Position numbers and translations under genes: made by a program. From Tepidisphaerales bacterium (GTDB lineage Bacteria > Planctomycetota > Phycisphaerae > Tepidisphaerales > Tepidisphaeraceae), in assembly GCA_046299715.1 (NCBI GenBank), contig JBKBHU010000007.1, forward strand, positions 123,464-155,463: 32,000 nt of DNA. Direction: 5' to 3'. The number at the start of each line of letters is the position of its first letter. Position 1 is the first letter of the stretch. The notes beneath the pieces are model-generated. The model had not been told where the DNA came from. It saw only the letters and a program-made list of their open reading frames with translations, and did not search any database. This document shows positions 3,451 through 25,868 of the stretch, one piece after another.

Positions 3451-4959
3451 TCACGACGACGGCGCCGCAACGGCCTGCTGCGGCACGGGTGCGGAAAGGC
3501 GGCCAAGCCTCCGCCCCCCCGCCCCGTCGAGCACCCTGCCCACGGTCTGCCGTTGCTCGGCCTGCACGACGCGGACGGAGACGCACTGGCCCGGCGTCAG
3601 CCCTTGCGCGTGCGGCAGCTCGACGTCGAAGTACCGCTCGCACCGCCCGTGAGGGTGGCCGTCCGCGGAGAGGTCTCCCTCGACGACCACCTCCACCACC
3701 TCGCCGACGAACTGCCGCCGGAACGTCAGGTCGTGCACGGCGACGGCCTGGCGCAGCCGCTGCATCCGCTCACGGACCACGTCGCCGGAGACGAAGTGGC
3801 GCGTCCAGCGGGCGGCGGCCGTCCCGGGTCGCGGGGAGAACGGAAACGCGTGCACGTGCAGGAAGGCCGCCTCGTCCACGACCGCGAGCGTGTCAAGAAA
3901 GTCACCCTCCGTTTCGCCGGGGAAGCCGACAAGGATGTCGGTGGTCAAGGCCGGCCGGTCGAACCGTCTGCGCAGCGTCTCGACCAGTTTCAGAAAGTCC
4001 GTACGTCGATATTGCCGATTCATGCGACGCAGGACGCGGTCCGACCCGGACTGCAGGGGCAAGTGAAAGTGCGGAACGACTTGCGGAGAGTTGCTTAATG
4101 CCTCGAGCAGGTCGTCCGTCAGGTCGCCCGGCTCGATGGACGACAGACGCAGCCGTGGCAGCTCCGGAACGTCTCGGGCGATGCGTCGGACCAGCTCGGC
4201 AAGGTACGTCCCGCCGGGGCAGGTCTGGCGGCGCCGCAGTGCCGTCGGTTGTCCGGTGGCCCCCAGAAAAATGCCGGTGAGCACGACTTCGCGGTGGCCT
4301 TCGTGGACGCATCGGCGGACTTCGCGGACCGCCTCGTCGGGGCCCATCGACCACAGCCGCGGACGGAGCCGCGGGATGATGCAGTACGTGCAGTGGGCGT
4401 CGCACCCGTCCTGCACCTTCAGATACGCCCGTTGACGCGGCCGTACGGCCGGCGGCGAGGCCGGTTCTCCCCACACGGGCAGCGCGAGCCGTCGCGGCGG
4501 CACGCCCCAAGCGTCCAGCAGCCGCTGGAGCCGGGTCGTGGCCGGCTCGTGGTGGGTCAGCACCGCATCGACGCCCGGAAGACCGGCAGCCTCTGCCGGG
4601 TCAGACGTGGCCCAGCAGCCCATGGCGACCACCCGCGGCCGGGCGGCATCCCGAAATGGACGGCCCGCACCCTCATCGGCCCCGGCGACGCCGGGATACG
4701 TTCCGGGGCCGCCGCCGGACTCGCCGGGCGTGGAAATCGACAGCAGCGGCAGGCTGACGGCTTTGCGCAGCGTCTGTCGGGACTGGGCGGCGGCGGCCGT
4801 GGTCACCGAGCAGGTGTTGACCAGCCTGAGGTCCGCCGCCGACGGGTCCTGCACACGCTCAAGCCCCCGCTGCTGCAGAAGGCGGGCGAGTTGCTCGCTC
4901 TCGGCGGCATTGGTCCTGCAGCCGAGGGTCTGGATATGAAACGTGCGCGGAGGCGACAC
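3451..4959 (-). CDS. mtaB: Radical-SAM methylthiotransferase of the MiaB/MtaB family (most like MtaB)
   Basis: GTG start at 4959. N-terminal MTTase domain (FHIQTLGCRTNAAESE...VNTCSVT), radical-SAM CxxxCxxC (DGCDAHCTYCIIP), GFPGETE block and a C-terminal TRAM-like beta segment. Contains a Gly-rich insertion. The MtaB versus MiaB/RimO assignment is by resemblance only. Confidence 0.75.
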   Translation of the reverse strand: MSPPRTFHIQTLGCRTNAAESEQLARLLQQRGLERVQDPSAADLRLVNTCSVTTAAAAQSRQTLRKAVSLPLLSISTPGESGGGPGTYPGVAGADEGAGRPFRDAARPRVVAMGCWATSDPAEAAGLPGVDAVLTHHEPATTRLQRLLDAWGVPPRRLALPVWGEPASPPAVRPRQRAYLKVQDGCDAHCTYCIIPRLRPRLWSMGPDEAVREVRRCVHEGHREVVLTGIFLGATGQPTALRRRQTCPGGTYLAELVRRIARDVPELPRLRLSSIEPGDLTDDLLEALSNSPQVVPHFHLPLQSGSDRVLRRMNRQYRRTDFLKLVETLRRRFDRPALTTDILVGFPGETEGDFLDTLAVVDEAAFLHVHAFPFSPRPGTAAARWTRHFVSGDVVRERMQRLRQAVAVHDLTFRRQFVGEVVEVVVEGDLSADGHPHGRCERYFDVELPHAQGLTPGQCVSVRVVQAEQRQTVGRVLDGAGGRRLGRLSAPVPQQAVAAPSS

Positions 4960-5426: not shown

Positions 5427-7814
5427 ATGGCCAGCAGCCGCAACGCCTGGGGCATCGACGTCGGCAACCGCGCGCTCAAGGCAGTCCGTCTGTCGCGCGA
5501 CGGTGACGGGTTCCGCATCGATGACCTCGAGCTGATCGAACACGAGGTGCCGCTGTCGCAGTCGGGTGACAACCGTGAGGAACTGGTCAACCGGGCGTTG
5601 GCCGAGTTCGTCTCGCGGCACAAGACCGGCTCGACGCCGGTGGGCATCTCGGTGTCGGGCAAGCAGTCCTTCGCCCGTTTCATCTCGCTGCCGCCGGTGG
5701 AGGAGAAGAAGATCCCCGAGATCGTCCGTTTCGAGGCGATCCAGCAGATTCCCTTCACGCTCGACGACGTGGAGTGGTCCTACCAGCTCTTCCGGCAGAA
5801 GGCGGCGGGCGGCGACGCTGCCGCGGCCGGGGAAGAAGAGGTGCAGGTCGGGCTGTTCGCGATGAGGAAGGAGGCCGTCAATCGCTACGTCGCGGCCTTC
5901 ACCGACCTCAACCTCAACGTCCAGGCGGTGCAGATGTCGGCCATGGCGCTGTACAACGCCATGCACTTCGACGGGTTGCTGAACGAGACGACGCTGCTCG
6001 TCGACGTCGGCGCGGACATGACCGACCTCGTTGTGGCCGACGGAGAGCTGCTGTGGCACCGTTCGGTGCCGTTCGGGGGCAACGCTTTCACTGAGGCCCT
6101 GATGCGGGCGCTCAAGAGCGACTTCGCCCACGCGGAACAGGAGAAGCGCAACGCCGCGACCTCGAAGTACGCCCGGCAGTACTTTCAGGCGATGCGGCCG
6201 GTGTTCACCGACCTGGTCGCGGAGATCCAGCGGTCTGTGGGGTTCTACGTCAGCCAGCACAAGAACTCGAAGGTGGCCAAGGTCATCGCCGCGGGCGGCA
6301 CGATGAAGCTGCCGGGGCTGCAGAAGTTCCTGCACCAGAACCTGAACATGCCTGTGGTCCGCGTGGAGACCTTCAGCGCGACGCCGCCGAGCGACGCTCG
6401 CCTGGCCGACCTGCTCAAGGAAGAGGCGGGCGCTTTCGCCACGGCGTACGGACTGGCGGTGCAGACCCTGGGCGAAGGCAAGGTCGTCTCGTCGCTGCTG
6501 CCCGGGCATATCCGCCGCGAGCAGGTGTGGCGAGAGAAGGCCAAGTGGTTTGCGGCGTCGGCCGCGCTGTTCGTGGCCGGGGCGGGGGTCGCCGTGGCCG
6601 GGGCCTATTTGCCGTGGCGGGCGTATGAAGGTCAGGAGGAGGACCGCCAGCGTGTGGCGCAGGTGCTGCGCGAGGCGCAGGCTCTGGACCAGGAGTGGTC
6701 GTCGATCGAAACGGGCGGGGAGTCGGCCCGTGCGCTCATCCGCAACGTGCGGTCGCTCACGCAGGACCGCACAGTGTGGCCGAAGGTCGTCGAGGCGGTT
6801 CGGGCGGCGGTGCCGCCGGTGCCGCGTTTCGCCAACGATGCCGAGCGCGAGCGGTACGTGGCCGCCAAGCCCCGCAACGAACGCAATGTCGTGCGTCTGG
6901 AGGGGTGGCAGAGCGTGTACCTTGCGGACGTCGGCCCACTGCTGGGCGACACGCGGCGGGCACGCTTCGCCACCGAGGCCCCGGTGGTGGCGGCCACGAC
7001 GGAAGGCGAGGGCGGGATGGGCGGCATGGGCTTCGGCGGCCCGCCTCCCGGCGCGGGCATGAACCTGCCCTCGTATGTGCGGCTGCCGCAGTTCACGATG
7101 GGGCCGACCGGCATGCCGTCGTCGGCGATGCAGATGGGCTCGGGCGGCGATGTGCTGGAGCTTCCGGCTCCGCCGACGCAGGTGGTGGAGGCGGCGCGTG
7201 GCCGGCCCGGCTTCCTGCTGCGGATTCGCGGCATCACCACCGCCCGGGACGCGCAGACGGCGCTGGACGAAGGCTTCCTCGCCGAGCTGCTCAAGAGCCG
7301 CTTTGCCCAGCCGGGGCAGCCTGCCCCGGAGTTCTTCGTGGCCGACGCTTTCATGGTCAAGCAGTCGATCCTCGGGGACAACCCCGAACGCGTGCAGGCC
7401 ATGCTCAGGGCACATCAGGAGCGGACGCGTTTGCTCGGCGGTGACGCCATGCCGACCGCCCCGGCCGGCGGGGGCGGCGGGACGCCGTTCGGCGGCGGTT
7501 TCGGAGCCGGCGAGGAGTTCAACCCCGGCGGCCCGGGCCCGGCCTTCCGCGGCGGCGGCACCTTCCCGAACATCCCGCGCCCGCCCGGCTTGCCCCCCAA
7601 CGTGCCCTGGCCGCCAACCGGCGGCACGCCGGCCATGCCCGCGGCACCGGCGCCGGGCGGGATGAGCACGCCGGACGACCCCACGCCGTTCCTCTGCCCG
7701 CTGACCGGGGAGGACATGCGGCAGGACAGCGAGTTCATGGTGCTGGCGTTTGTCGTCATCGGTCCGCCGCCGCCGGCACCTCCCGCGGGCGAAGCGCCCG
7801 CCGACGCCCCCTGA
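5427..7814 (+). CDS. pilM: PilM actin-like ATPase fused to a PilN-like membrane anchor and periplasmic region (GspL-like architecture), with a Gly/Pro/Met-rich tail
   Basis: PilM blocks: WGIDVGNRALKAV; SFARFISLPPVEEKKIPEIVRFEAIQQIPF; LLVDVGADMTDLVV; FGGNAFTEAL...AEQEKRN; VIAAGGTMKLPGLQKFL. These are followed by VVSSLLPGHIRRE (PilN INLLP-type motif), a TM helix (WFAASAALFVAGAGVAVAGAYL, about 6544..6612), a coiled-coil-like segment and LTQDRTVWPKVVEAVRAAVP (PilN-like). Strong G/C at third codon positions. Confidence 0.75.
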   Translation: MASSRNAWGIDVGNRALKAVRLSRDGDGFRIDDLELIEHEVPLSQSGDNREELVNRALAEFVSRHKTGSTPVGISVSGKQSFARFISLPPVEEKKIPEIVRFEAIQQIPFTLDDVEWSYQLFRQKAAGGDAAAAGEEEVQVGLFAMRKEAVNRYVAAFTDLNLNVQAVQMSAMALYNAMHFDGLLNETTLLVDVGADMTDLVVADGELLWHRSVPFGGNAFTEALMRALKSDFAHAEQEKRNAATSKYARQYFQAMRPVFTDLVAEIQRSVGFYVSQHKNSKVAKVIAAGGTMKLPGLQKFLHQNLNMPVVRVETFSATPPSDARLADLLKEEAGAFATAYGLAVQTLGEGKVVSSLLPGHIRREQVWREKAKWFAASAALFVAGAGVAVAGAYLPWRAYEGQEEDRQRVAQVLREAQALDQEWSSIETGGESARALIRNVRSLTQDRTVWPKVVEAVRAAVPPVPRFANDAERERYVAAKPRNERNVVRLEGWQSVYLADVGPLLGDTRRARFATEAPVVAATTEGEGGMGGMGFGGPPPGAGMNLPSYVRLPQFTMGPTGMPSSAMQMGSGGDVLELPAPPTQVVEAARGRPGFLLRIRGITTARDAQTALDEGFLAELLKSRFAQPGQPAPEFFVADAFMVKQSILGDNPERVQAMLRAHQERTRLLGGDAMPTAPAGGGGGTPFGGGFGAGEEFNPGGPGPAFRGGGTFPNIPRPPGLPPNVPWPPTGGTPAMPAAPAPGGMSTPDDPTPFLCPLTGEDMRQDSEFMVLAFVVIGPPPPAPPAGEAPADAP

Positions 7815-7926
7815 CCCCGCCGTGACCCACGCCCGGCGGGCCGTTTGGCGCGAGCTCAGCCAACCCCGCCCGGCCGGCCGCAGACCCGGCGACTTTCGCC
7901 CCAAGTGACCTTTCGGACCTTTTCCC

Positions 7927-9303
7927 ATGGCAGTCGACACGAAACACATCCTGACGGTCGTGAAGAAAAACTGGCTGAGCATCGCCTCGGCCGCGGTGGC
8001 GGTGGTGGCCGTCGCCGTGCCGTTCGTGCTGGCGGACGGATGGATGAGCGAGACGCAAACCGCCCTGGAGCAGCGCCGGGGGGTCGCCCGGACGATCGAA
8101 GACATCGGCCGTAAGAACCGCTCGCTGCCGCAGCTCGACCCCGACGCGACCGAACGCCAGCCGCTGGAGATGTTCCCGTCGCGGTCGGTCATCGCCGCGG
8201 GCAAAGCCGCGCTGGACCACCTGGACAAGCAGGGCAATCTGCTGTTGGAGGAGGCGCTGAAGCTCAACGTCCGCAGGCCGTTGATGGAGGACGTCTTCCG
8301 GGCGACGCCGCAGCAGTACCGCGGTGCGGCGTTTCGTTTCCGCGATGAATACCTTGCGTTCATGACCCGCCAGGAGTCGCCCAGCCCGCGGCCCGACGGG
8401 CTGAGCGTCATGGTCCGCGGGGGCGTGCCGTTCTCGGCCGAGCAGATCCAGCGGTTCATCATGGCCGAGCGCGAGCGTATCCAGCGCGAGCGGGGCATCC
8501 GGTCTGGCGGAAACCTGGTCAACGCGGACGAAATCGCGCGGCTGATCAGCGAAGCTGAGCGAAAGCTCCCCGAGCAGCTCCGCAACGAGGTGGCGCTGAG
8601 CAATCAGGTGTACCTCAGCCCGGACACGTGGATGGTGGACCCCAACATGGCCCCGTCGGTCCAGCCGCCGATGCCCGAAGCGGTGTGGTTCGCGCAGCTG
8701 GGGCTGTGGATCCAGCAGGAGGCCGCCCGGATCGTGCTCGCGGCCAACGAAGGCAGCGCCAACGTCTTCTCGTCGCCGGTCAAGCACCTCGTGGCCGTGC
8801 GGTACGTTCCGTTCGGTCAGGGCGGTGGCCCGTTCGGGCCGTACATCATGCCCGCGGGCGGAGGCAGCAGCGACGCCGGTGGCGACGGCGGGGGCGGCTT
8901 CGGGATGCCTGCCGCACCGACCGGACCGGTCGCCCCGCTGACCGGCAAGGACCCGTCGTCGCCCATCAACCTGGCGCGAGGGGCGTTTCTTACGGGCCGG
9001 CAGGCCTGCGGCTTGTACGACGTGGTGCATTTCAACATGGTCGTCCGCGTCGCCGAGAGCAAAGTCGCCGAGTTCCTCGCGACCATCCCACGCGGACGGC
9101 TGGTCAACGTGCTCAACGTCCAGATGCAGGCGGTGGATTCGGCCGTCGAGTCGGCCGCGGGCTACATCTACGGCAACGACCCGGTGGTGCAGCTCGAAGT
9201 GGAATGCGAAATGATCATGCTGCGGGCATGGACGACCACCCTGATGCCCCCACGGGTGCGGACGCTGCTGGGGGTGGAGTCCGCCGTCGCGGCGACGCCG
9301 TGA
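7927..9303 (+). CDS. Single-pass membrane protein, hypothetical; C-terminal core resembles PilO/GspM by eye
   Basis: N-terminal TM (WLSIASAAVAVVAVAVPFVL) followed by a helical segment. Gly-rich linker (GGGSSDAGGDGGGGFG). C-terminal YDVVHFNMVVRVAESKVAEFLATIPRGRLVNVLNVQMQAV resembles the PilO ferredoxin-like core. Coding bias is clear. Function is not established. Confidence 0.6.
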   Translation: MAVDTKHILTVVKKNWLSIASAAVAVVAVAVPFVLADGWMSETQTALEQRRGVARTIEDIGRKNRSLPQLDPDATERQPLEMFPSRSVIAAGKAALDHLDKQGNLLLEEALKLNVRRPLMEDVFRATPQQYRGAAFRFRDEYLAFMTRQESPSPRPDGLSVMVRGGVPFSAEQIQRFIMAERERIQRERGIRSGGNLVNADEIARLISEAERKLPEQLRNEVALSNQVYLSPDTWMVDPNMAPSVQPPMPEAVWFAQLGLWIQQEAARIVLAANEGSANVFSSPVKHLVAVRYVPFGQGGGPFGPYIMPAGGGSSDAGGDGGGGFGMPAAPTGPVAPLTGKDPSSPINLARGAFLTGRQACGLYDVVHFNMVVRVAESKVAEFLATIPRGRLVNVLNVQMQAVDSAVESAAGYIYGNDPVVQLEVECEMIMLRAWTTTLMPPRVRTLLGVESAVAATP

Positions 9304-9421
9304 CCGCCGACCTCGCCGCCCGGAAGACGGCCCCGCCCGAAACAGGGTAACTGGATGACTCGCATCGACGACACACCCCCGCACATCGGAACGACCGGAA
9401 CCCCGCAACGAGGTTGATCCC

Positions 9422-11749
9422 ATGAGTAAACCGATCGAACTGATCGAAAAGAACGTGCAGTACGTCACGCTCGGCCTTGGCGGGGCGTTTGTGCTGTTCA
9501 TGGCCTACCGCTACGTCATCAACACGCCGACGGTGGAGGTCGGCGGGCGGTCGCTCTCGGCCGGGCAGGTGGACCCGTACATCGCGGACAACCTGTTGCC
9601 GCAGCTCGAATCGCGGATGAACGCGGGCGGGCGACCGGAGATCGCGTTGCCCACGTTCGATGCCGACTTCCGCGCGGCGTTCGCAGGGCCTCAGGGGCGT
9701 CCGCTGCCGGGCGACTGGACCACCGCCCGCGGGCTCAACCTCGATTTGCCCACCGGTGCGGGGACGGTGCCGTCCCGCCTGCCCACCGATGTGCCGGTCG
9801 CCCCGGGCGGGCCGGTGGTCACGGCCGCCCCGACGCTCCCCAGCGCGATCCCTGTGGGCACCAGCACGGGACTGAGCCTGGTGAACCTCAATCAGTTCGT
9901 GTCGATCGCTCAGCTGGCGGGTGTGCCGAACGTCATGCCCCCGGACTCGCCGCCGATGGGCGGCGGCCCGGGGCCTGGCTTCGGCGGCTCGCCGGAGTTC
10001 GGCTCGGCCGGGCCCGGCGACCCCAACGCCGGGGCGGCCGGTGAAGGCGGCCGTGCCTTCACGCCCCGCACGCCCGTCCGCCCGGGGACGCCCCCGCCGG
10101 CCGCGCCCACGCCGCCGCCGGCCGCCGGCCAGGTGGACCGCACCTGGGTCACGGCCGCGTTTGAGGTGCCGATGGACTCGCTGGCCAACACCTTCGTGGA
10201 CGCCAACGTCCCTGCGGGGCTGGTGACGCTGTTCCTGCGTGTCGAGGTGCAACGGGAAGAGCTGCAGCCTGACGGCTCGTGGGGCAACGCCACGCTCGTG
10301 CGGCCGCTGCAAGGGTCGCCGCTGGCGATGAATCCGCTGCCGCAGGCGGGCAACATCGCGCAGGAGACCAACTATCGGAGCTGGGCGGAGCAGAACCAGC
10401 AGGAGATCCTGCAGCCCAGCTTTTACGCGGTGCTCGGCGGGACGAGCTGGCGGATGCCCGGCGCGCCCGTGGCACCGGGCGCTACCGGCGAGCCGTTCGA
10501 CCCGCGTCGCTACCTCGAGGGACCGATCCCGCCGGAGCTGTCGAAGGAAGAGCGCGACGCCGTCATGCGTGAACGTGCCCGCGAGGCGGCCCGTCGTGCC
10601 GAAGAAGAGCGGCGGCGGCGCATGGAGCAGAACCGCAACCGTCCGCCCCCGGGCATGGGGCCCCCGGGCGGGTTTCCCGGCGGCTTCCCGGGCGGCGGTT
10701 TCCCCGGCGGCGGATTTCCCGGCGGCCCGGGCGGTCGCGGGGGCGGCCGTGGCGGCGGCGCCGGCGGCCTGGTGGCCCCGGTTCCCCCGAAGTTCTCCAT
10801 GGCGCAACCGCCCGGCTGGCACGCGTTGCAGCCGCCGACGTCCACGGTCGCGAACGCTCCGGGCGCAGGCGTGGCGGCTGGCAACCCTTGGACGCTGCCC
10901 ACCAGCTTCATCTACCCGCTGGTGCGGTTTGACGGTCTTCTGGCTGGGCTGAGCCTGCAGACGGGGGGATACGGGCCTCCGTCGCAGCGTCCGCCGGGGT
11001 ATCCGCCGAACTTGCCGTGGCCGCCGCCGGGGTTCGTGCCGCCGAACCTGCCGGGCGGGGCGCGGCCGCCGGGGATGCCCGGCGGGCCGGAGTTCCCGCG
11101 CGGTAGTGAAGAAGGCGGGCCGGGCTGGTCGCCGCCGACGCCGCCGGGCGAGTCAACACCGCCTCCGGCCAACCTCGGGCGAATCCCCCCCGGCGCGTTC
11201 GACCCGAGCAACTGGGCCGACGCCACGGTGATCGCGCTCGCGCACGACGACTCGGTGCAGCCCGGCAAGACGTATCGCTACCGCATGCGGTACATCATGC
11301 TCAACCCCGTGTACGGCCAGCCGGCCGCCGCCGCCGAACCCAGGATCGCGCAGCAGTTCCGTTGGGAGAGCGAGTGGAGCGGCTGGACGGACGCGGTGAC
11401 CGTGCCGTCGCGGGTGAGCTTCTTCGTGTCCGCGCCCATCACCACCGGCGCCAGCAGTATCTCGTTCGAGGTGTTCCAGTTCGTCCGCGGACGGATGACG
11501 AGCCGGACGTTCCAGGTGCAGCCGGGCGACCTCATCGGCTTCAACGACCCTGCCGGCGGCAACTTCGCCACGGGGCACGTGCTGGTGGACGTGCGGCGCG
11601 ACCCCGCACGAAACGAGAACTACGTGCTGATCCTCACGCCCGAGGGCAACCTGATTCGCCGTGACAACAGCGACAGATCGTCGCAGACGTATCAGGAGCT
11701 TCGGCGGCAGCTCAACGCACCCGGACCGGTCGGCGCGGCGGGCAACTGA
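9422..11749 (+). CDS. Single-pass membrane protein, hypothetical; long Pro/Gly-rich region and a beta-rich C-terminal domain (possible PilP/GspC analogue)
   Basis: GAGG lies about 10 nt upstream of the ATG. N-terminal TM (YVTLGLGGAFVLFMAYRYVI). It has extensive P/G low complexity, a charged helix (EERDAVMRERAREAARRAEEERRRRMEQ), GGFP/RGG repeats and a C-terminal globular-looking segment (GKTYRYRMRYIMLNPVYG...FQVQPGDLIGF...YVLILTPEGNLIRRD). Function unknown. Confidence 0.6.
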   Translation: MSKPIELIEKNVQYVTLGLGGAFVLFMAYRYVINTPTVEVGGRSLSAGQVDPYIADNLLPQLESRMNAGGRPEIALPTFDADFRAAFAGPQGRPLPGDWTTARGLNLDLPTGAGTVPSRLPTDVPVAPGGPVVTAAPTLPSAIPVGTSTGLSLVNLNQFVSIAQLAGVPNVMPPDSPPMGGGPGPGFGGSPEFGSAGPGDPNAGAAGEGGRAFTPRTPVRPGTPPPAAPTPPPAAGQVDRTWVTAAFEVPMDSLANTFVDANVPAGLVTLFLRVEVQREELQPDGSWGNATLVRPLQGSPLAMNPLPQAGNIAQETNYRSWAEQNQQEILQPSFYAVLGGTSWRMPGAPVAPGATGEPFDPRRYLEGPIPPELSKEERDAVMRERAREAARRAEEERRRRMEQNRNRPPPGMGPPGGFPGGFPGGGFPGGGFPGGPGGRGGGRGGGAGGLVAPVPPKFSMAQPPGWHALQPPTSTVANAPGAGVAAGNPWTLPTSFIYPLVRFDGLLAGLSLQTGGYGPPSQRPPGYPPNLPWPPPGFVPPNLPGGARPPGMPGGPEFPRGSEEGGPGWSPPTPPGESTPPPANLGRIPPGAFDPSNWADATVIALAHDDSVQPGKTYRYRMRYIMLNPVYGQPAAAAEPRIAQQFRWESEWSGWTDAVTVPSRVSFFVSAPITTGASSISFEVFQFVRGRMTSRTFQVQPGDLIGFNDPAGGNFATGHVLVDVRRDPARNENYVLILTPEGNLIRRDNSDRSSQTYQELRRQLNAPGPVGAAGN
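10667..10768 (+). repeat. In-frame low-complexity repeat encoding GGFP GGFP GGGFP GGGFP GGPGG RGGG RGGG AGG
   Basis: I read the codons directly in the frame of the 9422..11749 gene. There are four (G)GGFP units followed by two RGGG units. Confidence 0.9.
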
Positions 11750-11923: not shown

Positions 11924-11949
11924 TGTCACATATTTCAAACCTTGTGACA
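11924..11949. promoter_or_regulatory. Inverted repeat TGTCACA-N12-TGTGACA in an AT-rich patch upstream of sdhB (candidate operator)
   Basis: Perfect 7 bp arms at 11924..11930 and 11943..11949. Each arm is itself a TGTnACA palindrome. The repeat is centred about 64 bp upstream of the sdhB ATG. No binding protein is known. Confidence 0.4.
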
Positions 11950-12000
11950 TAAAGGGGTTGCGATGGCAGCCGACCGCGGGTTTTTCTATTATCTGAAACC

Positions 12001-12840
12001 ATGAGCACGGCCACCGCTACACCTCCGGTTTCACGTACCAGCACCCCCGGCTCGGCAGCACCAGCTGCAGGGGCGGCCGCCACGAGCACGAAGACCATCC
12101 ATGTCCGCATCAAGCGGTGTGACGGCCCGGGCCAGCCGACGCGGTGGGAAGAGTTCAAGATCCCCCACCGGCCCAACATGAACATCATCTCGGTGCTGCA
12201 GTACATCGCGGCCAACCCCGTCACCGCCGACGGCAAGCCGACGTCGCCCCCCGTGTGGGATTCGGGCTGTCTGGAGGAGGTGTGCGGGGCCTGCACGATG
12301 GTGATCAACGGGCGGGTCCGGCAGAGCTGCTCGGCCCTCGTGGACAAGCTCGCCCCCAGCGGCGAGACGATCACGCTCGAGCCGATGACCAAGTTCCCGG
12401 TCATCCGCGACCTCTGGGTGGACCGCAGCCGGCTCTTTGAGGACCTCAAGCGGGTGAAGGCCTGGGTACCGATCGACGGCACGTACGACCTGGGGGCGGG
12501 GCCGCCGATCAGCCAGGAGCTTCAGGAAGAGCGTTACCCGCTGTCGCGGTGCATCTCGTGCGGCTGCTGCCTCGAAGCCTGCCCGCAGTACACGCCCACC
12601 AACAAGTTCGTCGGGGCGGCCGTGATTTCGCAGGCGAGGCTGTTCAACGACCATCCGATCGGCGCGGCGCTGAAAGAAGAGCGGCTGGAGGCCCTCATGG
12701 GCGAAGGCGGTGTGTACAACTGCTCGAAGGCCGGCAACTGCGTTCAGGTGTGCCCGAAGCAGATCCCGCTGCTGGAGTCGATCGCGGCCATCCAGCGGCA
12801 GGTGACCGTTCACCTGATCAAAAAATTCTTCACGAAGTAG
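12001..12840 (+). CDS. sdhB: Succinate dehydrogenase/fumarate reductase iron-sulfur subunit
   Basis: Three Cys clusters: GCLEEVCGACTMVINGRVRQSC (2Fe-2S), CISCGCCLEACP (4Fe-4S) and CSKAGNCVQVCP (3Fe-4S). About 30 aa of S/T/A/P-rich N-terminal extension precede the conserved core. Confidence 0.85.
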   Translation: MSTATATPPVSRTSTPGSAAPAAGAAATSTKTIHVRIKRCDGPGQPTRWEEFKIPHRPNMNIISVLQYIAANPVTADGKPTSPPVWDSGCLEEVCGACTMVINGRVRQSCSALVDKLAPSGETITLEPMTKFPVIRDLWVDRSRLFEDLKRVKAWVPIDGTYDLGAGPPISQELQEERYPLSRCISCGCCLEACPQYTPTNKFVGAAVISQARLFNDHPIGAALKEERLEALMGEGGVYNCSKAGNCVQVCPKQIPLLESIAAIQRQVTVHLIKKFFTK

Positions 12841-13066
12841 AGCCCGGCGAGACCCGCACGCTCCCCCTGCCGAGACCGGCGGGTTGCGTCGCCTCCGGCC
12901 CCCCCGCTGTCGCGAATCGTCGCGCAGGCCGGGCCGCCGGCCCCGCCGCCATGCCGGGGCAGAGGTGTTGACAGGCCCGCTAGGACGAATCCGCCGCCGC
13001 GGACTTCGCATTGACCCCCCTTCTGCCGCCACCGTACGCTCGACTCCTGTGCTGCGGCTCACCCCC

Positions 13067-13756
13067 ATGGGTCTACGCGAGCTGGTGGTCGGCACGCTGC
13101 TGCTGGCTGCCGTAGGGGCGGTCTGCGCGTGGCTGTGGTGGCCGCTGGTCGTGCTGCCGCTGGCTGTGTGGGTGTGGCTGCTGGCGTTCTTTCGCGACCC
13201 CGAGCGGGCGATCCCCGATGAGCCGGACGTGCTGGTCTCGCCGGCCGACGGCACCATTTCCGACATCACGTCCATCCCCGAGCACCCGCAGCTCGGCGGG
13301 CCGGCCGTGAGCATCGGGATCTTCCTCTCGGTGTTCGATGTCCACATCAACCGCAGCCCCTGCGACGGCAGGGTGCTTTCGGCGGTGCATACGCCGGGGA
13401 AGTTCATCAACGCGCTTCGGCATCGTGAGGCGTCGGCCCTGAACGAGGCCAACACGGTGCTTCTCGGTGACGTCGAGACCGGGCGGCCTCTGGTCGTGGT
13501 GCGGCAGATCGTCGGTCTCATCGCACGTCGCATCGTCTTTACCCCCCGCGTGGGAACGGTGCTGCGGCGGGGCGAGCGGATCGGCATGATGAAGTTCGGC
13601 TCCCGCACGGAGCTGATCGTCCCGACGTCGCTGCAGCCGCAGGTGCTCGTGACGGTGGGCCAGAAGGTGCGCGGTGGGAGCGATGTCGTCGTGCGGCTGG
13701 GAGCGGGAAGCCGAGCCTTCGGGTCGGCCCGGCCTTTGCAGGAGACGGCGGTGTGA
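13067..13756 (+). CDS. psd: Phosphatidylserine decarboxylase proenzyme (short form)
   Basis: ORF 12884..13756 trimmed to the ATG at 13067 (MGLRELV..., N-terminal TM). It carries SPADG, FLSVFDVHINRSP and the self-cleavage-type block MMKFGSRTEL (GS). It is adjacent to pssA. Confidence 0.85.
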   Translation: MGLRELVVGTLLLAAVGAVCAWLWWPLVVLPLAVWVWLLAFFRDPERAIPDEPDVLVSPADGTISDITSIPEHPQLGGPAVSIGIFLSVFDVHINRSPCDGRVLSAVHTPGKFINALRHREASALNEANTVLLGDVETGRPLVVVRQIVGLIARRIVFTPRVGTVLRRGERIGMMKFGSRTELIVPTSLQPQVLVTVGQKVRGGSDVVVRLGAGSRAFGSARPLQETAV

Positions 13757-14712
13757 GCGTCCCGACCGGCCCAAGCGGCTCTCCGGACCTGCCGCCGCCC
13801 CGCTCCAGCGCGAGGTCGGCCCTGCCGCCGACAGACCGGGAGGCCTGGCGGGAAGCGCGTCGGCTGCGTTTCCGTCGGCGTGGGCGGCGGGCGTACATCC
13901 GCTCGGTCTATTTCCTGCCGTCGATGGCCACGCTGGGCAACGCCCTCTGCGGCTTCGGGGCCATCTACGTCGCCGCCCTCACGCCCGAGCAGTCGGGGGG
14001 CGACCCGTGGACCAGTTTTTTCGCCCGGCACCACTTCGTCGTTGCCGCCTACCTCATCTTCATCGCCATGGTGTGGGACGCTCTCGACGGCCGGCTGGCC
14101 CGCTGGACGCGGCACACCACCGACTTCGGCGGCCAGCTCGACTCCCTGGCCGATGTGATTTCCTTCGGCGCCGCCCCCGCGTTCCTGGCCCTTCAGGTGT
14201 TCAAGACGCTGGGCCCGCAGGACATTCCGCTGGAGCTGTCGCGCTTCGTGTGGGCGATCGGCGCGTTGTACGTGGCTTGCGCGGCGATCCGGCTGGCCCG
14301 GTTCAACGTGTCGAATGAGCACGGGGAGCAGTCGCACTTTTCGTTTCTCGGTTTGCCGTCGCCGGGAGCCGGCGGCGCCGTCGCCGGCTTCGTGCTCATG
14401 CAGCAGTGGCTGGCGGGAAGCGTGCGGACGTGGCAGGTGCAGCTCGCCGACGGACTCGTGTACGTCCTGCCCGCGGTTGTGCTGCTGTGCGGCCTGCTGA
14501 TGGTGTCCAACATCCGCTACCCGCACGTGGTCAACCGCTACCTGCGGGGGCGCAAGTCGATCTGGCGGATCGTCGGCATCCTCTCGCTGCTCCTGCTGCT
14601 GCTGGTGGCGCACCAGGTGACGCTGGGGGTGGTCCTGCTGGCGTACGTGCTGCTGGGCGTGGCGGGCTGGCTGTGGGCGAAGGCACGACGGAGCCCCGCC
14701 GAAGCCGCCTAG
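13753..14712 (+). CDS. pssA: CDP-diacylglycerol--serine O-phosphatidyltransferase
   Basis: CDP-alcohol phosphatidyltransferase motif DGRLARWTRHTTDFGGQLDSLADVISFG and a multi-TM profile. The GTG start overlaps the psd stop (GTGA, 13753..13756). Confidence 0.85.
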   Translation: MSVPTGPSGSPDLPPPRSSARSALPPTDREAWREARRLRFRRRGRRAYIRSVYFLPSMATLGNALCGFGAIYVAALTPEQSGGDPWTSFFARHHFVVAAYLIFIAMVWDALDGRLARWTRHTTDFGGQLDSLADVISFGAAPAFLALQVFKTLGPQDIPLELSRFVWAIGALYVACAAIRLARFNVSNEHGEQSHFSFLGLPSPGAGGAVAGFVLMQQWLAGSVRTWQVQLADGLVYVLPAVVLLCGLLMVSNIRYPHVVNRYLRGRKSIWRIVGILSLLLLLLVAHQVTLGVVLLAYVLLGVAGWLWAKARRSPAEAA

Positions 14713-19962: not shown

Positions 19963-20044
19963 GCGGCCGTGGCGGAATTGGCAGACGCGCTAGATTCAGG
20001 TTCTAGTGAGGCAACTCGTGCTGGTTCGACTCCAGTCGGCCGCA
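19963..20044 (+). tRNA. tRNA-Leu (anticodon CAG), class II with a long variable arm; CCA not encoded
   Basis: Acceptor stem GCGGCCG/CGGCCGC with discriminator A. D arm GCGGAATTGGCAGACGC. Anticodon stem-loop CTAGA-TTCAGGT-TCTAG. T arm GCTGG-TTCGACT-CCAGT. The D and anticodon arms are close to E. coli tRNA-Leu(CAG). Confidence 0.9.
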
Positions 20045-23276: not shown

Positions 23277-24398
23277 TCAGCGGATCGTGAGCTGCGGTGA
23301 CGGCGAGAACGCACGTCGCAGCTCGACCTGAGCCACGAGGTTGGCGGTGAGCAGTTCGAGGCTGGCGGCGAGGTCACGGTCCGGGCCGTCGAAGTTGGCG
23401 TGCGGTGTACCCCGGTCGCTGTTGACCCGCAGCTGAGGGTACAGCGGCAACGCACCGAGGAACGGCAGCCCCAGTCGCTTGGCTTCGTTCTCGGCCCCGC
23501 CGGCCCCGAAGATGTCGATCCGCTTGCCGTCGGGCCCGACGAGGTAGCTCATGTTCTCGACCACGCCCAGCACAGGGGTGTTGAGCTGCTGGAACATCCG
23601 CACCGCACGCACCGCGTCATCGAGAGCGACCTGCTGCGGCGTCGCCACCACGACCGCCCCGGTCAGCGGGACCGACTGGCAGAGCGTCAGGCTCACATCT
23701 CCCGTGCCCGGCGGCAGGTCCACCACCAGGTAGTCCAGCTCCGGCCAGACGGTGTTGTCCATCAGCAGTTGTTTGAAGGCTCCGTGCGCCATCGGCCCCC
23801 GCCAGATCAGCGGCTTCTCCTGCTCGACCAGCGCGCCGATGGTGATGACGTCAATGCCGTGCACGAAAAACGGGACGATCTTCCCCGCCTTCACCGTCGG
23901 CGTCTGCCCTTTGATGCCCAGCAACGTCGGCGTGGACGGCCCGTAGATGTCGCCGTCCATGAGGCCCACGCGGTGACCCAGCCGCGAGAGCCCCACCGCG
24001 AGGTTGACCGCGACGGTGCTCTTGCCTACGCCGCCCTTGCCCGCGCCGACCGCGACGATGCTGCGGACCTGCGGGAGGGGCCGCTCGGTACCCGCCGCCC
24101 CCTCCGCTGCCCCCCCACCCGCTCCGCCCGACGACCGGCCGGCCGACCCCGCTCCGCCCCGGTAGCTGACCTCCAGCGCGAACTCGGTGGCATCGGTGTT
24201 GGCCAGCGCCGCCGCCACCTCCTGCCGAAGCCGGTCCTTCAGCGAACTTTCCGGGCTGGTGAGTTCGATCTCGAGGGCGACGCGGGTCCCGTCGATCTCG
24301 ACCGTCTTCACCATGCCCAGCGAGACGATGTCCCGGTGCAGCTCGGGGTCTTTGACGTTCCGCAGGGCCTGGCGCACGTCGTCTTCGGTCAGCGGCAT
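23277..24398 (-). CDS. apbC: Mrp/NBP35 (ApbC) iron-sulfur cluster carrier ATPase with an N-terminal DUF59/MIP18 domain
   Basis: ORF 23277..24950 trimmed to the in-frame ATG at 24398 (MPLTEDDVRQALRNVKDPELHRDIVSLGMV). Deviant Walker A GKGGVGKST and DLPPGTGD blocks. The 184 codons upstream look non-coding. Confidence 0.9.
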   Translation of the reverse strand: MPLTEDDVRQALRNVKDPELHRDIVSLGMVKTVEIDGTRVALEIELTSPESSLKDRLRQEVAAALANTDATEFALEVSYRGGAGSAGRSSGGAGGGAAEGAAGTERPLPQVRSIVAVGAGKGGVGKSTVAVNLAVGLSRLGHRVGLMDGDIYGPSTPTLLGIKGQTPTVKAGKIVPFFVHGIDVITIGALVEQEKPLIWRGPMAHGAFKQLLMDNTVWPELDYLVVDLPPGTGDVSLTLCQSVPLTGAVVVATPQQVALDDAVRAVRMFQQLNTPVLGVVENMSYLVGPDGKRIDIFGAGGAENEAKRLGLPFLGALPLYPQLRVNSDRGTPHANFDGPDRDLAASLELLTANLVAQVELRRAFSPSPQLTIR

Positions 24399-24503
24399 GG
24401 CGGGGGATGTTAGCCGCGTTCGTGTCCCGGCCGGCCGCAGAGACGCGCGTTCCCGCATCGGGTGTGCGTCGCCCGCCCGTCGCCCGGCGGGTACCATGCG
24501 TGC

Positions 24504-25868
24504 ATGACCGGCGGCGGCAACGCACCGTTGGAGGCGGCCGTGCGACCGCCGTCCGCGTCCCCCACCCCGGCCGCAACGGCTTCCCCCGCCGACGACGCTC
24601 TGGCCGTCGCCCGCACCGGGCTGAACCTGCAGCCGGGCCTGGAAGACGACGGCTGGGCACGGCCTCCGCCGGTGCGGCTGGACGACGGCTCGCAAGTCCA
24701 GCTCTACAAAGACGGCGAAGCCCTGCACGCGGCGCTGGAAGCCATCCGCAACGCCCGTCGATGCATCTATCTCGAGGTCTACATCTTCGCCAACGACGAC
24801 ACGGGACAGGCCTTCAAAGAGGCACTGGCCGAGAAGGCGAGAGAAGGCGTCGCGGTCTACCTGATCTACGACGACTTCGGCTCGCTGACCACACCGCGGC
24901 GGTCGTTCCTGCGATTGCGTGACGCCGGCGTGCGCATCCGTGTGTTCCACCCGCTACGGCCGTGGGAGTGCAAGTTTTCCTGGCGGCCGTTCAACCGCGA
25001 CCACCGGAAGCTGCTGGTCATCGACAACGAAATCGCCGGGCTGGGCGGACTGAACATCGGCCGCGAGTACGCCGGGTCGTGGGTGGCTGCAGGTCTGAGG
25101 AAGCTGCGTCAGCCGCTGCCGGAGAAGTACCGCATCCGCCCGGATGAGTTCTTCCGCGACACCGCCGTCGGCATCCGCGGCCCGTCGGCCCGCGTTCTGG
25201 CCAACGCGTTCGCGCGAACGTGGAACTACCTTTCGCACGGCGGCCGCATCGCCCGTGCGATGACGCTCTACCCCCCGCCCACGGGCGGCCGGCGCCCCGT
25301 CGCCCTCACCGTCCCCGTCCGCGGCAGGCGGCTGGCGTGCATCGCTTCGGTCCCCACGCTCGACTCACCCCTGCGGCCGACCCTGCATCGGCTCTTTGCC
25401 GAGGCCCGCCGTTCGATTCACCTCACCATGGCGTACTTCGCCCCCGACGACGACCTCATCCGCGAACTCTGCCGGGCCGCCCGCCGCGGCGTGCAGGTCG
25501 AGCTGATGCTTCCGGCCAGGACGGATGTGCCGCTGCTGGTGCCCGCGGCGAGGTCGTTTTACGAGACCCTGCTGCAGGCGGGCGTCCGCATCTATGAGCG
25601 CCAGGGCGCCATCCTCCACGCCAAGACGATGGTCATCGACGGCCGCATCAGCGTCATCGGCTCGACCAACCTCGACTACCGCTCGATCGAGTACAACCTT
25701 GAGCTGTCAGCGGTGATCACGTCGGAGGAGCTCGGCCAGCAGATGGTCTCGCTCTTCGAACACGACGTCCGCTTCGCCCGGCGGATCTCGCCCGCGCAGT
25801 GGCGACGCCGCCCTACGCGCGACCGGCTGGTCCAGTGGGCCGTGAGCCGGGCCCGCTACCTGCTGTGA
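24504..25868 (+). CDS. Phospholipase D superfamily protein (cardiolipin synthase ClsB-like), two HKD motifs
   Basis: HKD motifs HRKLLVIDNEIAGLGGLNIG and HAKTMVIDGRISVIGSTNLD. The start is uncertain (ATG 24504 preferred over GTG 24462). Confidence 0.75.
   Translation: MTGGGNAPLEAAVRPPSASPTPAATASPADDALAVARTGLNLQPGLEDDGWARPPPVRLDDGSQVQLYKDGEALHAALEAIRNARRCIYLEVYIFANDDTGQAFKEALAEKAREGVAVYLIYDDFGSLTTPRRSFLRLRDAGVRIRVFHPLRPWECKFSWRPFNRDHRKLLVIDNEIAGLGGLNIGREYAGSWVAAGLRKLRQPLPEKYRIRPDEFFRDTAVGIRGPSARVLANAFARTWNYLSHGGRIARAMTLYPPPTGGRRPVALTVPVRGRRLACIASVPTLDSPLRPTLHRLFAEARRSIHLTMAYFAPDDDLIRELCRAARRGVQVELMLPARTDVPLLVPAARSFYETLLQAGVRIYERQGAILHAKTMVIDGRISVIGSTNLDYRSIEYNLELSAVITSEELGQQMVSLFEHDVRFARRISPAQWRRRPTRDRLVQWAVSRARYLL

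Follow-up and report, generated by a model that had tools for sequence, protein, structure and literature searches.

The stretch of DNA analyzed here (the window) comprises 32,000 nucleotides of contig JBKBHU010000007.1 (assembly GCA_046299715.1, positions 123,464 to 155,463), has a G+C content of about 70% and derives from the metagenome-assembled genome (MAG) of a soil/freshwater planctomycete of the Tepidisphaerales (Phycisphaerae, Planctomycetota). It harbors three co-directional open reading frames (ORFs) on the plus strand, referred to as genes 1, 2 and 3 (795, 458 and 775 aa), which an earlier reading of the sequence alone, the original prediction, had described as an envelope module resembling the PilM/N-O-P proteins of type IV pili (T4P) and the GspL/M/C proteins of type II secretion systems (T2SS). 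The three ORFs and their neighbors, mtaB in divergent orientation upstream and sdhB downstream, were found as predicted (Table 1), and the G+C content at third codon positions of the module ORFs (0.88-0.90) is that of the real genes of the window. Each protein contains one single strongly hydrophobic helix, at about aa 374-397 in gene 1, aa 15-41 in gene 2 and aa 15-33 in gene 3. The Gly/Pro-rich inserts, which the original prediction took to be probably disordered, are recognizable as low-complexity stretches in all three proteins (aa 523-568 and 663-762 in gene 1, 284-350 in gene 2, 158-238 and 390-600 in gene 3), and those of genes 2 and 3 correspond to residues modeled by AlphaFold with a predicted local distance difference test (pLDDT) score <50 (120 of 458 and 290 of 775 residues, respectively).

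Table 1. Genes, protein domains and flanking genes of the module, with their positions in the window
Feature	Position	Strand	Basis
Gene 1, 795 aa, natural PilM-PilN-type fusion	5427-7814	+	ORF; matches to PilM_2, TIGR01175 and Amuc_1101_fam
Gene 1, cytoplasmic actin-like PilM domain, aa 9-347	5451-6467	+	Pfam PilM_2; PilM matches in PDB
Gene 1, SSLLP motif, aa 355-359	6489-6503	+	Aligned with INLLP of 5EOU; 8 residues past the PilM domain
Gene 1, single transmembrane helix, ~aa 374-397	6546-6617	+	Sole 19-residue window with Kyte-Doolittle >1.6
Gene 1, periplasmic part, aa 398-795	6618-7811	+	Conserved blocks split by two Gly/Pro-rich inserts
Gene 2, 458 aa, bitopic, PilO/GspM/Amuc_1100-like	7927-9303	+	ORF; AlphaFold and Foldseek
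Gene 2, Gly-rich insert interrupting the core, aa 296-360	8812-9006	+	Located before aa 364-448
Gene 2, alpha/beta core, aa 364-448	9016-9270	+	pLDDT 70-93 over beta-alpha-beta-alpha-beta elements
Gene 3, 775 aa, bitopic, largely periplasmic tether protein	9422-11749	+	ORF; AlphaFold model
Gene 3, conserved middle domain, aa 237-345	10130-10456	+	pLDDT mostly 88-97
Gene 3, C-terminal beta-rich region, aa 580-765	11159-11716	+	pLDDT 80-96
MiaB/MtaB-type radical-SAM gene	3451-4959	-	UPF0004 and Radical_SAM; divergent from gene 1
sdhB/frdB-like Fe-S subunit gene	12001-12840	+	Fer2_3 and Fer4_8

The N-terminal domain of gene 1 matches the Pfam model PilM_2 (PF11104) with 149.4 bits against a cut-off of 27 (E = 1.6e-43), over positions 1-339 of the 340 positions of the profile, and the protein also scores above the cut-off of TIGR01175 (168.7 versus 133 bits). 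Among the PDB matches there are the PilM proteins of M. xanthus (3jc8_M, 2.1e-28), P. aeruginosa (5eox) and T. thermophilus (2ych), and the domain is very strongly conserved in 18 relatives. Judged by these curated family thresholds, gene 1 is a genuine PilM, in agreement with the actin-like blocks noticed originally. Past this domain, the segment GKVVSSLLP aligns with GMARINLLP of 5EOU, an engineered PilM-PilN(1-12) chimera, and the SSLLP motif is invariant among 69 relatives. Gene 1 thus reproduces the N-terminal layout of PilN, an LLP motif followed by one transmembrane (TM) helix with N-in topology, so that this part of the original prediction stands, and from the alignment SSLLP is the apparent in-cis counterpart of the N-terminal INLLP peptide with which PilN docks into PilM.

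The best-scoring named family for gene 1 is Amuc_1101_fam (NF045709), matched with 225.2 bits (E = 1.9e-66) over positions 49-460 of the 608 positions of the profile. Given that the equivalog cut-off of this model is 650 bits, gene 1 appears to belong to a family related to Amuc_1101, not to Amuc_1101_fam itself. The post-PilM segment alone, consisting of the motif, the TM helix and a juxtamembrane helix, matched positions 359-460 of the same model in seven out of eight members (best E = 2.1e-7), indicating that the fused architecture is common to gene 1 and the verrucomicrobial Amuc_1101 family. Amuc_1101_fam was also the sole family to recur when 69 gene 1 C-termini were scanned against Pfam and NCBIfam, where it matched the juxtamembrane segment.

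For gene 2, AlphaFold predicted an N-terminal TM helix, long helices and a C-terminal alpha/beta core, with a pLDDT of 69 overall and >85 in the folded parts. The 13 best Foldseek matches of this model in PDB were solely PilO (M. xanthus, P. aeruginosa) or Akkermansia Amuc_1100, with E-values from 2.6e-3 to 5.8e-2 and probabilities of 0.90-1.00 for ranks 1-11 and 0.72-0.89 for ranks 12-13. PilO structures occupied ranks 1-3 and 10 (3jc8_O, 2rjz, 5uvr; E = 2.6e-3 to 1.6e-2, probability 1.00), with a root-mean-square deviation (rmsd) of 3.0-3.7 Å over about 71-73 aligned columns for the PilO core structures, and this match is probably located on the core at aa 364-448. Amuc_1100 (6LAD, 6KNY) was matched with E of about 1e-2 and a probability of 0.9-0.98, at an rmsd of 13-15 Å over about 300 columns.

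The sequence of gene 2 gave no significant match in Pfam or NCBIfam, including the PilO/GspM models PF04350, PF04612 and NF040576, and a gene 2 profile built from 150 sequences retrieved no PilO from the PDB sequences. Scanning 105 relatives singly against the hidden Markov model (HMM) libraries revealed recurrent sub-threshold matches to GspM_XpsM in nine of them (best 0.0015), to Pfam T2SSM in five (best 0.015) and to Amuc_1100_fam (NF038287) in two (best E = 0.0076). Comparison of the three gene families with one another by hhalign gave no signal of a PilN/PilO-type paralogy, including that of the gene 1 C-terminus with gene 2. These lines of evidence are each weak and mutually consistent, and we accept gene 2 as PilO/GspM-like at the level of its predicted fold, not of family membership. 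The family to which it belongs comprises at least 2,210 clusters at 50% identity (exhaustive HMMER search, E up to 1e-3) and is represented by no Pfam or NCBIfam model.

Gene 3 behaved differently from what had been proposed. Its AlphaFold model contains confident domains at aa 130-170, 237-345 and 580-765, with about 290 disordered residues between them. The middle domain carries the conserved motifs DxxWV and FLRVExxRxE...DGxWG, and residues D609, Y620, P629 and G702 are invariant in 56 relatives; the motif PGKTYRYRxRY..NP looks FN3-like. Foldseek returned only generic Ig/FN3-type sandwiches (Fab, cytokine-receptor), at probabilities of no more than 0.25. The protein from the window had no match in Pfam or NCBIfam and no specific match in PDB, and no HMM family recurred among the 56 relatives taken from related loci. 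Profile searches of the PDB sequences with gene 3, gene 2 and the C-terminal part of gene 1 returned either no match or Gly-linker artefacts, such as the linkers of single-chain variable fragments (scFv), which were discarded. With one N-terminal TM helix and no lipobox, gene 3 has the layout of GspC, unlike PilP, and its alternation of Pro/Gly linkers (aa 158-238 and 390-600) with beta domains (aa 237-345 and 580-765) is analogous in architecture only. The models therefore describe gene 3 as a putative Ig/FN3-like beta-domain tether of an undescribed family, not detectably homologous to PilP or GspC, with which it has in common its operon position and architecture, without demonstrable ancestry. 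The original interpretation is hence partly supported: the assignments of gene 1 and gene 2 hold, the latter through fold similarity to PilO and Amuc_1100, and the PilP/GspC assignment of gene 3 fails at both the profile and the fold level.

A search with gene 1 in 185,579 species genomes identified 323 species with a relative, and the best 80 of these are all Tepidisphaerales or Phycisphaerae, the cultured Fontivita pretiosa B-254 among them. In all of the roughly 55 loci whose sequence was long enough, profile searches revealed the order gene 1-gene 2-gene 3, with median intergenic gaps of 41.5 and 52.5 nt. Even in distant relatives from other metagenomes (L001, L004, L005 and L085), in which genes 2 and 3 are 24-30% identical to those studied here, the trio is kept and the flanks are different. 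On the upstream side, the neighbors most often seen in the ~55 loci are dtd and mtaB, and on the downstream side sdhB, psd and pssA. The clustered flank genes of these loci include no secretin-like family, and no PilB-type Walker A motif was detected in any flank. In the window, the ORFs scanned against Pfam (five filtered ORFs lay outside the scan) gave no match to secretin, PilB/PilT/PilC or pilin families, and a six-frame regular-expression scan found neither a PilB-type Walker A nor a prepilin motif. The claim that the module has no T4P partner genes nearby is thus confirmed, and the identical order in ~55 loci with neither a secretin family nor a Walker A motif in their flanks indicates that the module is a conserved stand-alone unit. 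A local rearrangement of an ordinary pilMNOPQ operon, the alternative named in the original prediction, is refuted by the same trio without pilQ in all these loci, including distant ones with other flanks.

The "orphan" status of the module holds locally. It says little about the whole genome, since planctomycete genomes scatter functionally linked genes. Prepilin-type N-termini (GFSLIELLVV/GFTLVELLVV) were observed in two related loci, that of Fontivita pretiosa (L017, 366-959, plus strand) and that of another MAG (L079, 357-1232, minus strand); these ORFs, about 9 kb upstream of the module, are the sole pilin-like genes in any flank, and their presence there is probably due to chance because such genes are very numerous in planctomycetes. 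In a few of the related MAG loci, two ORFs that adjoin or overlap take the place of a single gene 1 or gene 3 (L029, 13605-15445; L071, 13461-15346; gene 1 of L058 and L080), which could reflect assembly frameshifts or pseudogenization.

Taken together, we favor the interpretation, with a probability of roughly 0.55, that the trio is one operon and encodes the alignment/platform subcomplex, in the inner membrane, of a machine of the type IV filament (T4P/T2SS) class. Gene 1 would unite in a single polypeptide the parts that PilM and PilN contribute separately in canonical systems, with its ATP-binding PilM domain on the cytoplasmic face, held by the protein's own LLP peptide, and its periplasmic part paired with the PilO/GspM-type gene 2. 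Gene 3 would stand in place of the PilP/GspC/Amuc_1099 connector, and its flexible Pro/Gly linkers would reach toward an outer-membrane component. We infer that the three proteins physically assemble and that the partner secretin, ATPases, platform protein and (pseudo)pilins are encoded elsewhere in the genome; the output of the machine could be a pilus, secretion or uptake. Other planctomycetes have been reported to possess PilB, PilC, PilD, PilQ, PilT and PilMNO (PMC7397252).

Several points weigh against this interpretation. The existence of the partners is assumed, and neither the window nor the ~55 flanks of up to 10 kb yielded a secretin, ATPase, PilC or pilin gene near the module. The PilN-like periplasmic segment attributed to gene 1 by the original prediction could not be recovered, given that the C-terminal sequences of 69 gene 1 members all failed to match the PilN Pfam model (PF05137), even at E-values as high as 10, and that a profile search of the PDB sequences with the periplasmic part returned no entry. 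The fold evidence for the gene 2 model is specific but weak in E-value, and a ferredoxin-like core is common. For gene 3, neither PilP nor GspC appeared in the Foldseek PDB top 50, and PilP/T2SSC models gave no match in 15 relatives scanned against Pfam or in 15 + 56 scanned against NCBIfam. Finally, the case of H. pylori shows, by analogy, that an orphan pilMNO operon may serve a different machine (PMC10823254).

The nearest characterized relative of the module, to judge from these matches, is the Amuc_1101/1100/1099 (MUL2) cluster of Akkermansia muciniphila, a relationship that the original prediction had missed together with the precedent of the orphan pilMNO operon of H. pylori. In the Akkermansia cluster, which spans Amuc_1102-Amuc_1098, Amuc_1102 is a pilin-like gene, Amuc_1101 is a PilM-type protein (MUL2B), Amuc_1099 is uncharacterized and Amuc_1098 is a secretin (PMC5332112, PMC13174399). 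Two reports describe which genes make up MUL2 and how it acts in uptake (PMC13174399, PMC12418764), and the mul genes are, according to the second, which cites Davey 2023, needed for the accumulation of mucin in internal compartments (PMC12418764). Akkermansia and the present host both belong to the Planctomycetes-Verrucomicrobia-Chlamydiae (PVC) superphylum, and the gene order is alike, with a long PilM-like protein, a PilO-like bitopic protein and a third envelope protein; the module thus corresponds to the 1101-1100-1099 core in gene order and, for two of its three members, in the type of protein. Gene 1 scores best against the Amuc_1101 model, with a match that includes the post-PilM membrane segment, and crystal structures of Amuc_1100 are among the weak fold matches of the gene 2 model, with two relatives weakly matching Amuc_1100_fam. 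On the other hand, the 225 bits of gene 1 fall far short of the 650-bit equivalog cut-off, no present locus has an adjacent secretin or Amuc_1102-like gene, all three present proteins contain long Gly/Pro inserts, and gene 3 has no NCBIfam match at all, hence none to an Amuc_1099-type model if there is one. Moreover, the reported location of Amuc_1100 is the cell surface (PMC5332112), whereas the features of gene 2 suggest a protein of the inner membrane.

The comparison with the canonical systems is similarly mixed. With the type IVa PilM-PilN-PilO-PilP proteins of P. aeruginosa, M. xanthus and T. thermophilus the module shares a PilM domain above thresholds, a PilN-type LLP peptide followed by a TM helix, a PilO-like fold and the order M, N, O and then a fourth component, all as bitopic inner-membrane proteins. 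It differs in the fusion of PilM with PilN, in PilN and PilO periplasmic domains that are not recognizable by HMMs, in a fourth protein that is not PilP-like and has a TM helix instead of a lipoprotein signal, in the absence of pilQ after the module, where sdhB is found, and in proteins that are 1.5-4 times larger. In the T2SS, one chain, GspL, also combines an actin-like domain in the cytoplasm with a TM helix and a periplasmic domain. The analogue of PilO is GspM, whose models are weakly matched by the gene 2 relatives, and GspC is a TM-anchored periplasmic connector with the topology of gene 3. In contrast to the T2SS, gene 1 matches PilM_2 and not the GspL family, no gspD-K genes are nearby and neither an HR nor a PDZ domain was detected in gene 3.

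The main rival to a filament-machine platform is an accessory role at the flagellar motor, in which the PilM/PilN/PilO-type proteins would form a periplasmic cage modulating motility, to which gene 3 would add a further cage or spoke component. Although it lacks T4P, H. pylori builds the cage of its flagellar motor from a pilMNO operon located beside miaB, likewise an orphan without PilP, PilQ or pilin (PMC10823254). The module, too, always lacks adjacent T4P partners, and a MiaB-family radical-SAM gene adjoins it, divergent upstream of gene 1 in the window and as the immediate upstream neighbor in 16 related loci. A described isolate of the Tepidisphaeraceae is, in addition, motile by means of one flagellum (PMC13514998). 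This shared miaB/mtaB adjacency may, however, be either coincidence or conserved linkage, no flagellar gene is found among the common neighbor families, and gene 3 has no link to any flagellar component. By its description the H. pylori operon also differs in having PilM and PilN as separate proteins and no third large protein, and the closest named families of the present genes, Amuc_1101 and Amuc_1100, are those of the non-motile Akkermansia, in a cluster joined to a secretin (PMC5332112). We therefore regard a flagellar cage as unlikely. A role as the base of a macromolecule-uptake machine, a planctomycete counterpart of MUL2 serving "selfish" import of polysaccharides into the periplasm, is a tentative possibility, somewhat easier to reconcile with the data, and is a functional specialization of the platform that we favor, with the same architecture. 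Homology or fold similarity to Amuc_1101 and Amuc_1100 points in this direction, as does the reported requirement of mul genes for intracellular accumulation of mucin (PMC12418764, PMC13174399). Planctomycetes take dextran into the periplasm, and pili-like fibers on their crateriform structures bind dextran (PMC5394234); these structures join the outer and cytoplasmic membranes, by components that are not known (PMC5394234), and an uptake base might match such press-stud connections. The Tepidisphaeraceae are moreover polysaccharide degraders (PMC13514998), and the long flexible linkers of all three proteins would suit a wide periplasm. The argument is nevertheless wholly by analogy and none of it comes from Phycisphaerae; crateriform structures and uptake were studied in Planctomycetia and not in Tepidisphaerales, and the score of gene 1 far under the Amuc_1101 equivalog cut-off (225 versus 650 bits) and the lack of an adjoining Amuc_1102-like or secretin gene also speak against it.

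A scaffold for FtsZ-independent division or envelope organization, in which the membrane-tethered actin-like gene 1 would act like FtsA, was also considered. Planctomycetes are not known to possess FtsZ. PilM belongs to the FtsA/MreB superfamily, gene 1 gives weak matches to the FtsA and MreB Pfam models, and its N-terminal domain is unusually well conserved; the module lies among core housekeeping and phospholipid-synthesis genes, and Tepidisphaeraceae divide by binary fission (PMC13514998). The specific similarities, however, are all to PilM, PilO and Amuc_1100, the score for the FtsA model is 35 bits, where the cut-off is 176, the neighborhood contains no dcw genes and there is no experimental hint for such a role, which makes this the least credible of the alternatives, one to which we give hardly any weight. 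A broader formulation, in which the module does not belong to an ordinary pilus and is either the cytoplasmic-membrane anchor of a planctomycete trans-envelope apparatus that captures and imports macromolecules, related to MUL2 across the PVC superphylum, or an FtsZ-independent envelope scaffold, likewise seems improbable to us; as an import apparatus, the Pro/Gly linkers of all three proteins would span a wide, variable periplasm.

New in this work is a variant of the PilM(N)-PilO-type module that is fused and expanded, has a third component of an undescribed family and occurs as a stand-alone operon across a planctomycete order. It constitutes a natural case in which the PilMNOP scaffold has been fused, expanded and uncoupled from the secretin gene. 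A large unannotated set of Phycisphaerae proteins is thereby tied to the Amuc_1101/Amuc_1100 cluster of Akkermansia, which is of medical and ecological interest, suggesting that a core of fused PilM-PilN and a PilO-like protein is common to the PVC superphylum. The genes are also candidates for two questions of planctomycete biology, namely how the outer membrane is connected to the cytoplasmic membrane and by what mechanism polysaccharide uptake proceeds. So far, no finding places the function of the module outside the type IV filament systems, and if the filament-machine platform proposed here is merely the scattered inner-membrane part of an ordinary pilus, the gain will be the annotation of two "hypothetical protein" families.

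With regard to the neighborhood of the module, dtd is also found upstream in the window, and beyond the sdhB-like gene downstream come psd, pssA and gltX, among more housekeeping genes. The spacer after gene 3, described as palindrome-rich in the original prediction, has the folding energy of shuffled sequence (z = -0.15) and no terminator-like site follows gene 3, so that a regulatory or terminator element of this kind was rejected. The sdhB-like gene has no adjoining sdhA, sdhC or sdhD and lies directly 3' of gene 3 in 20 related loci, and a DAO/Rieske gene comes after it in L005. Ahead of it there is the sole sigma-70-like promoter match of the region (11963-11992), and just 5' of this match an inverted repeat, TGTCACA-N12-TGTGACA (11926-11951), which could be the binding site of a regulator.

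The module lies in a neighborhood with many genes for envelope lipids. Those for phospholipid synthesis are located downstream, at 12884-14712 and 24462-25868, and comprise psd, a pssA-like CDP-alcohol phosphatidyltransferase gene and a phospholipase D (PLD)-type cardiolipin synthase gene. The cardiolipin-synthase-like gene (24462-25868, plus strand) is overlapped by about 490 nt by an ORF of 557 aa on the minus strand (23277-24950) with a coding-like third-position G+C content; one of the two calls is likely to be wrong, probably in the start of the minus-strand ORF. The sole RNA gene identified in the window by ARAGORN and Rfam is a tRNA-Leu(CAG) at 19963-20044 (plus strand), which adjoins smpB.

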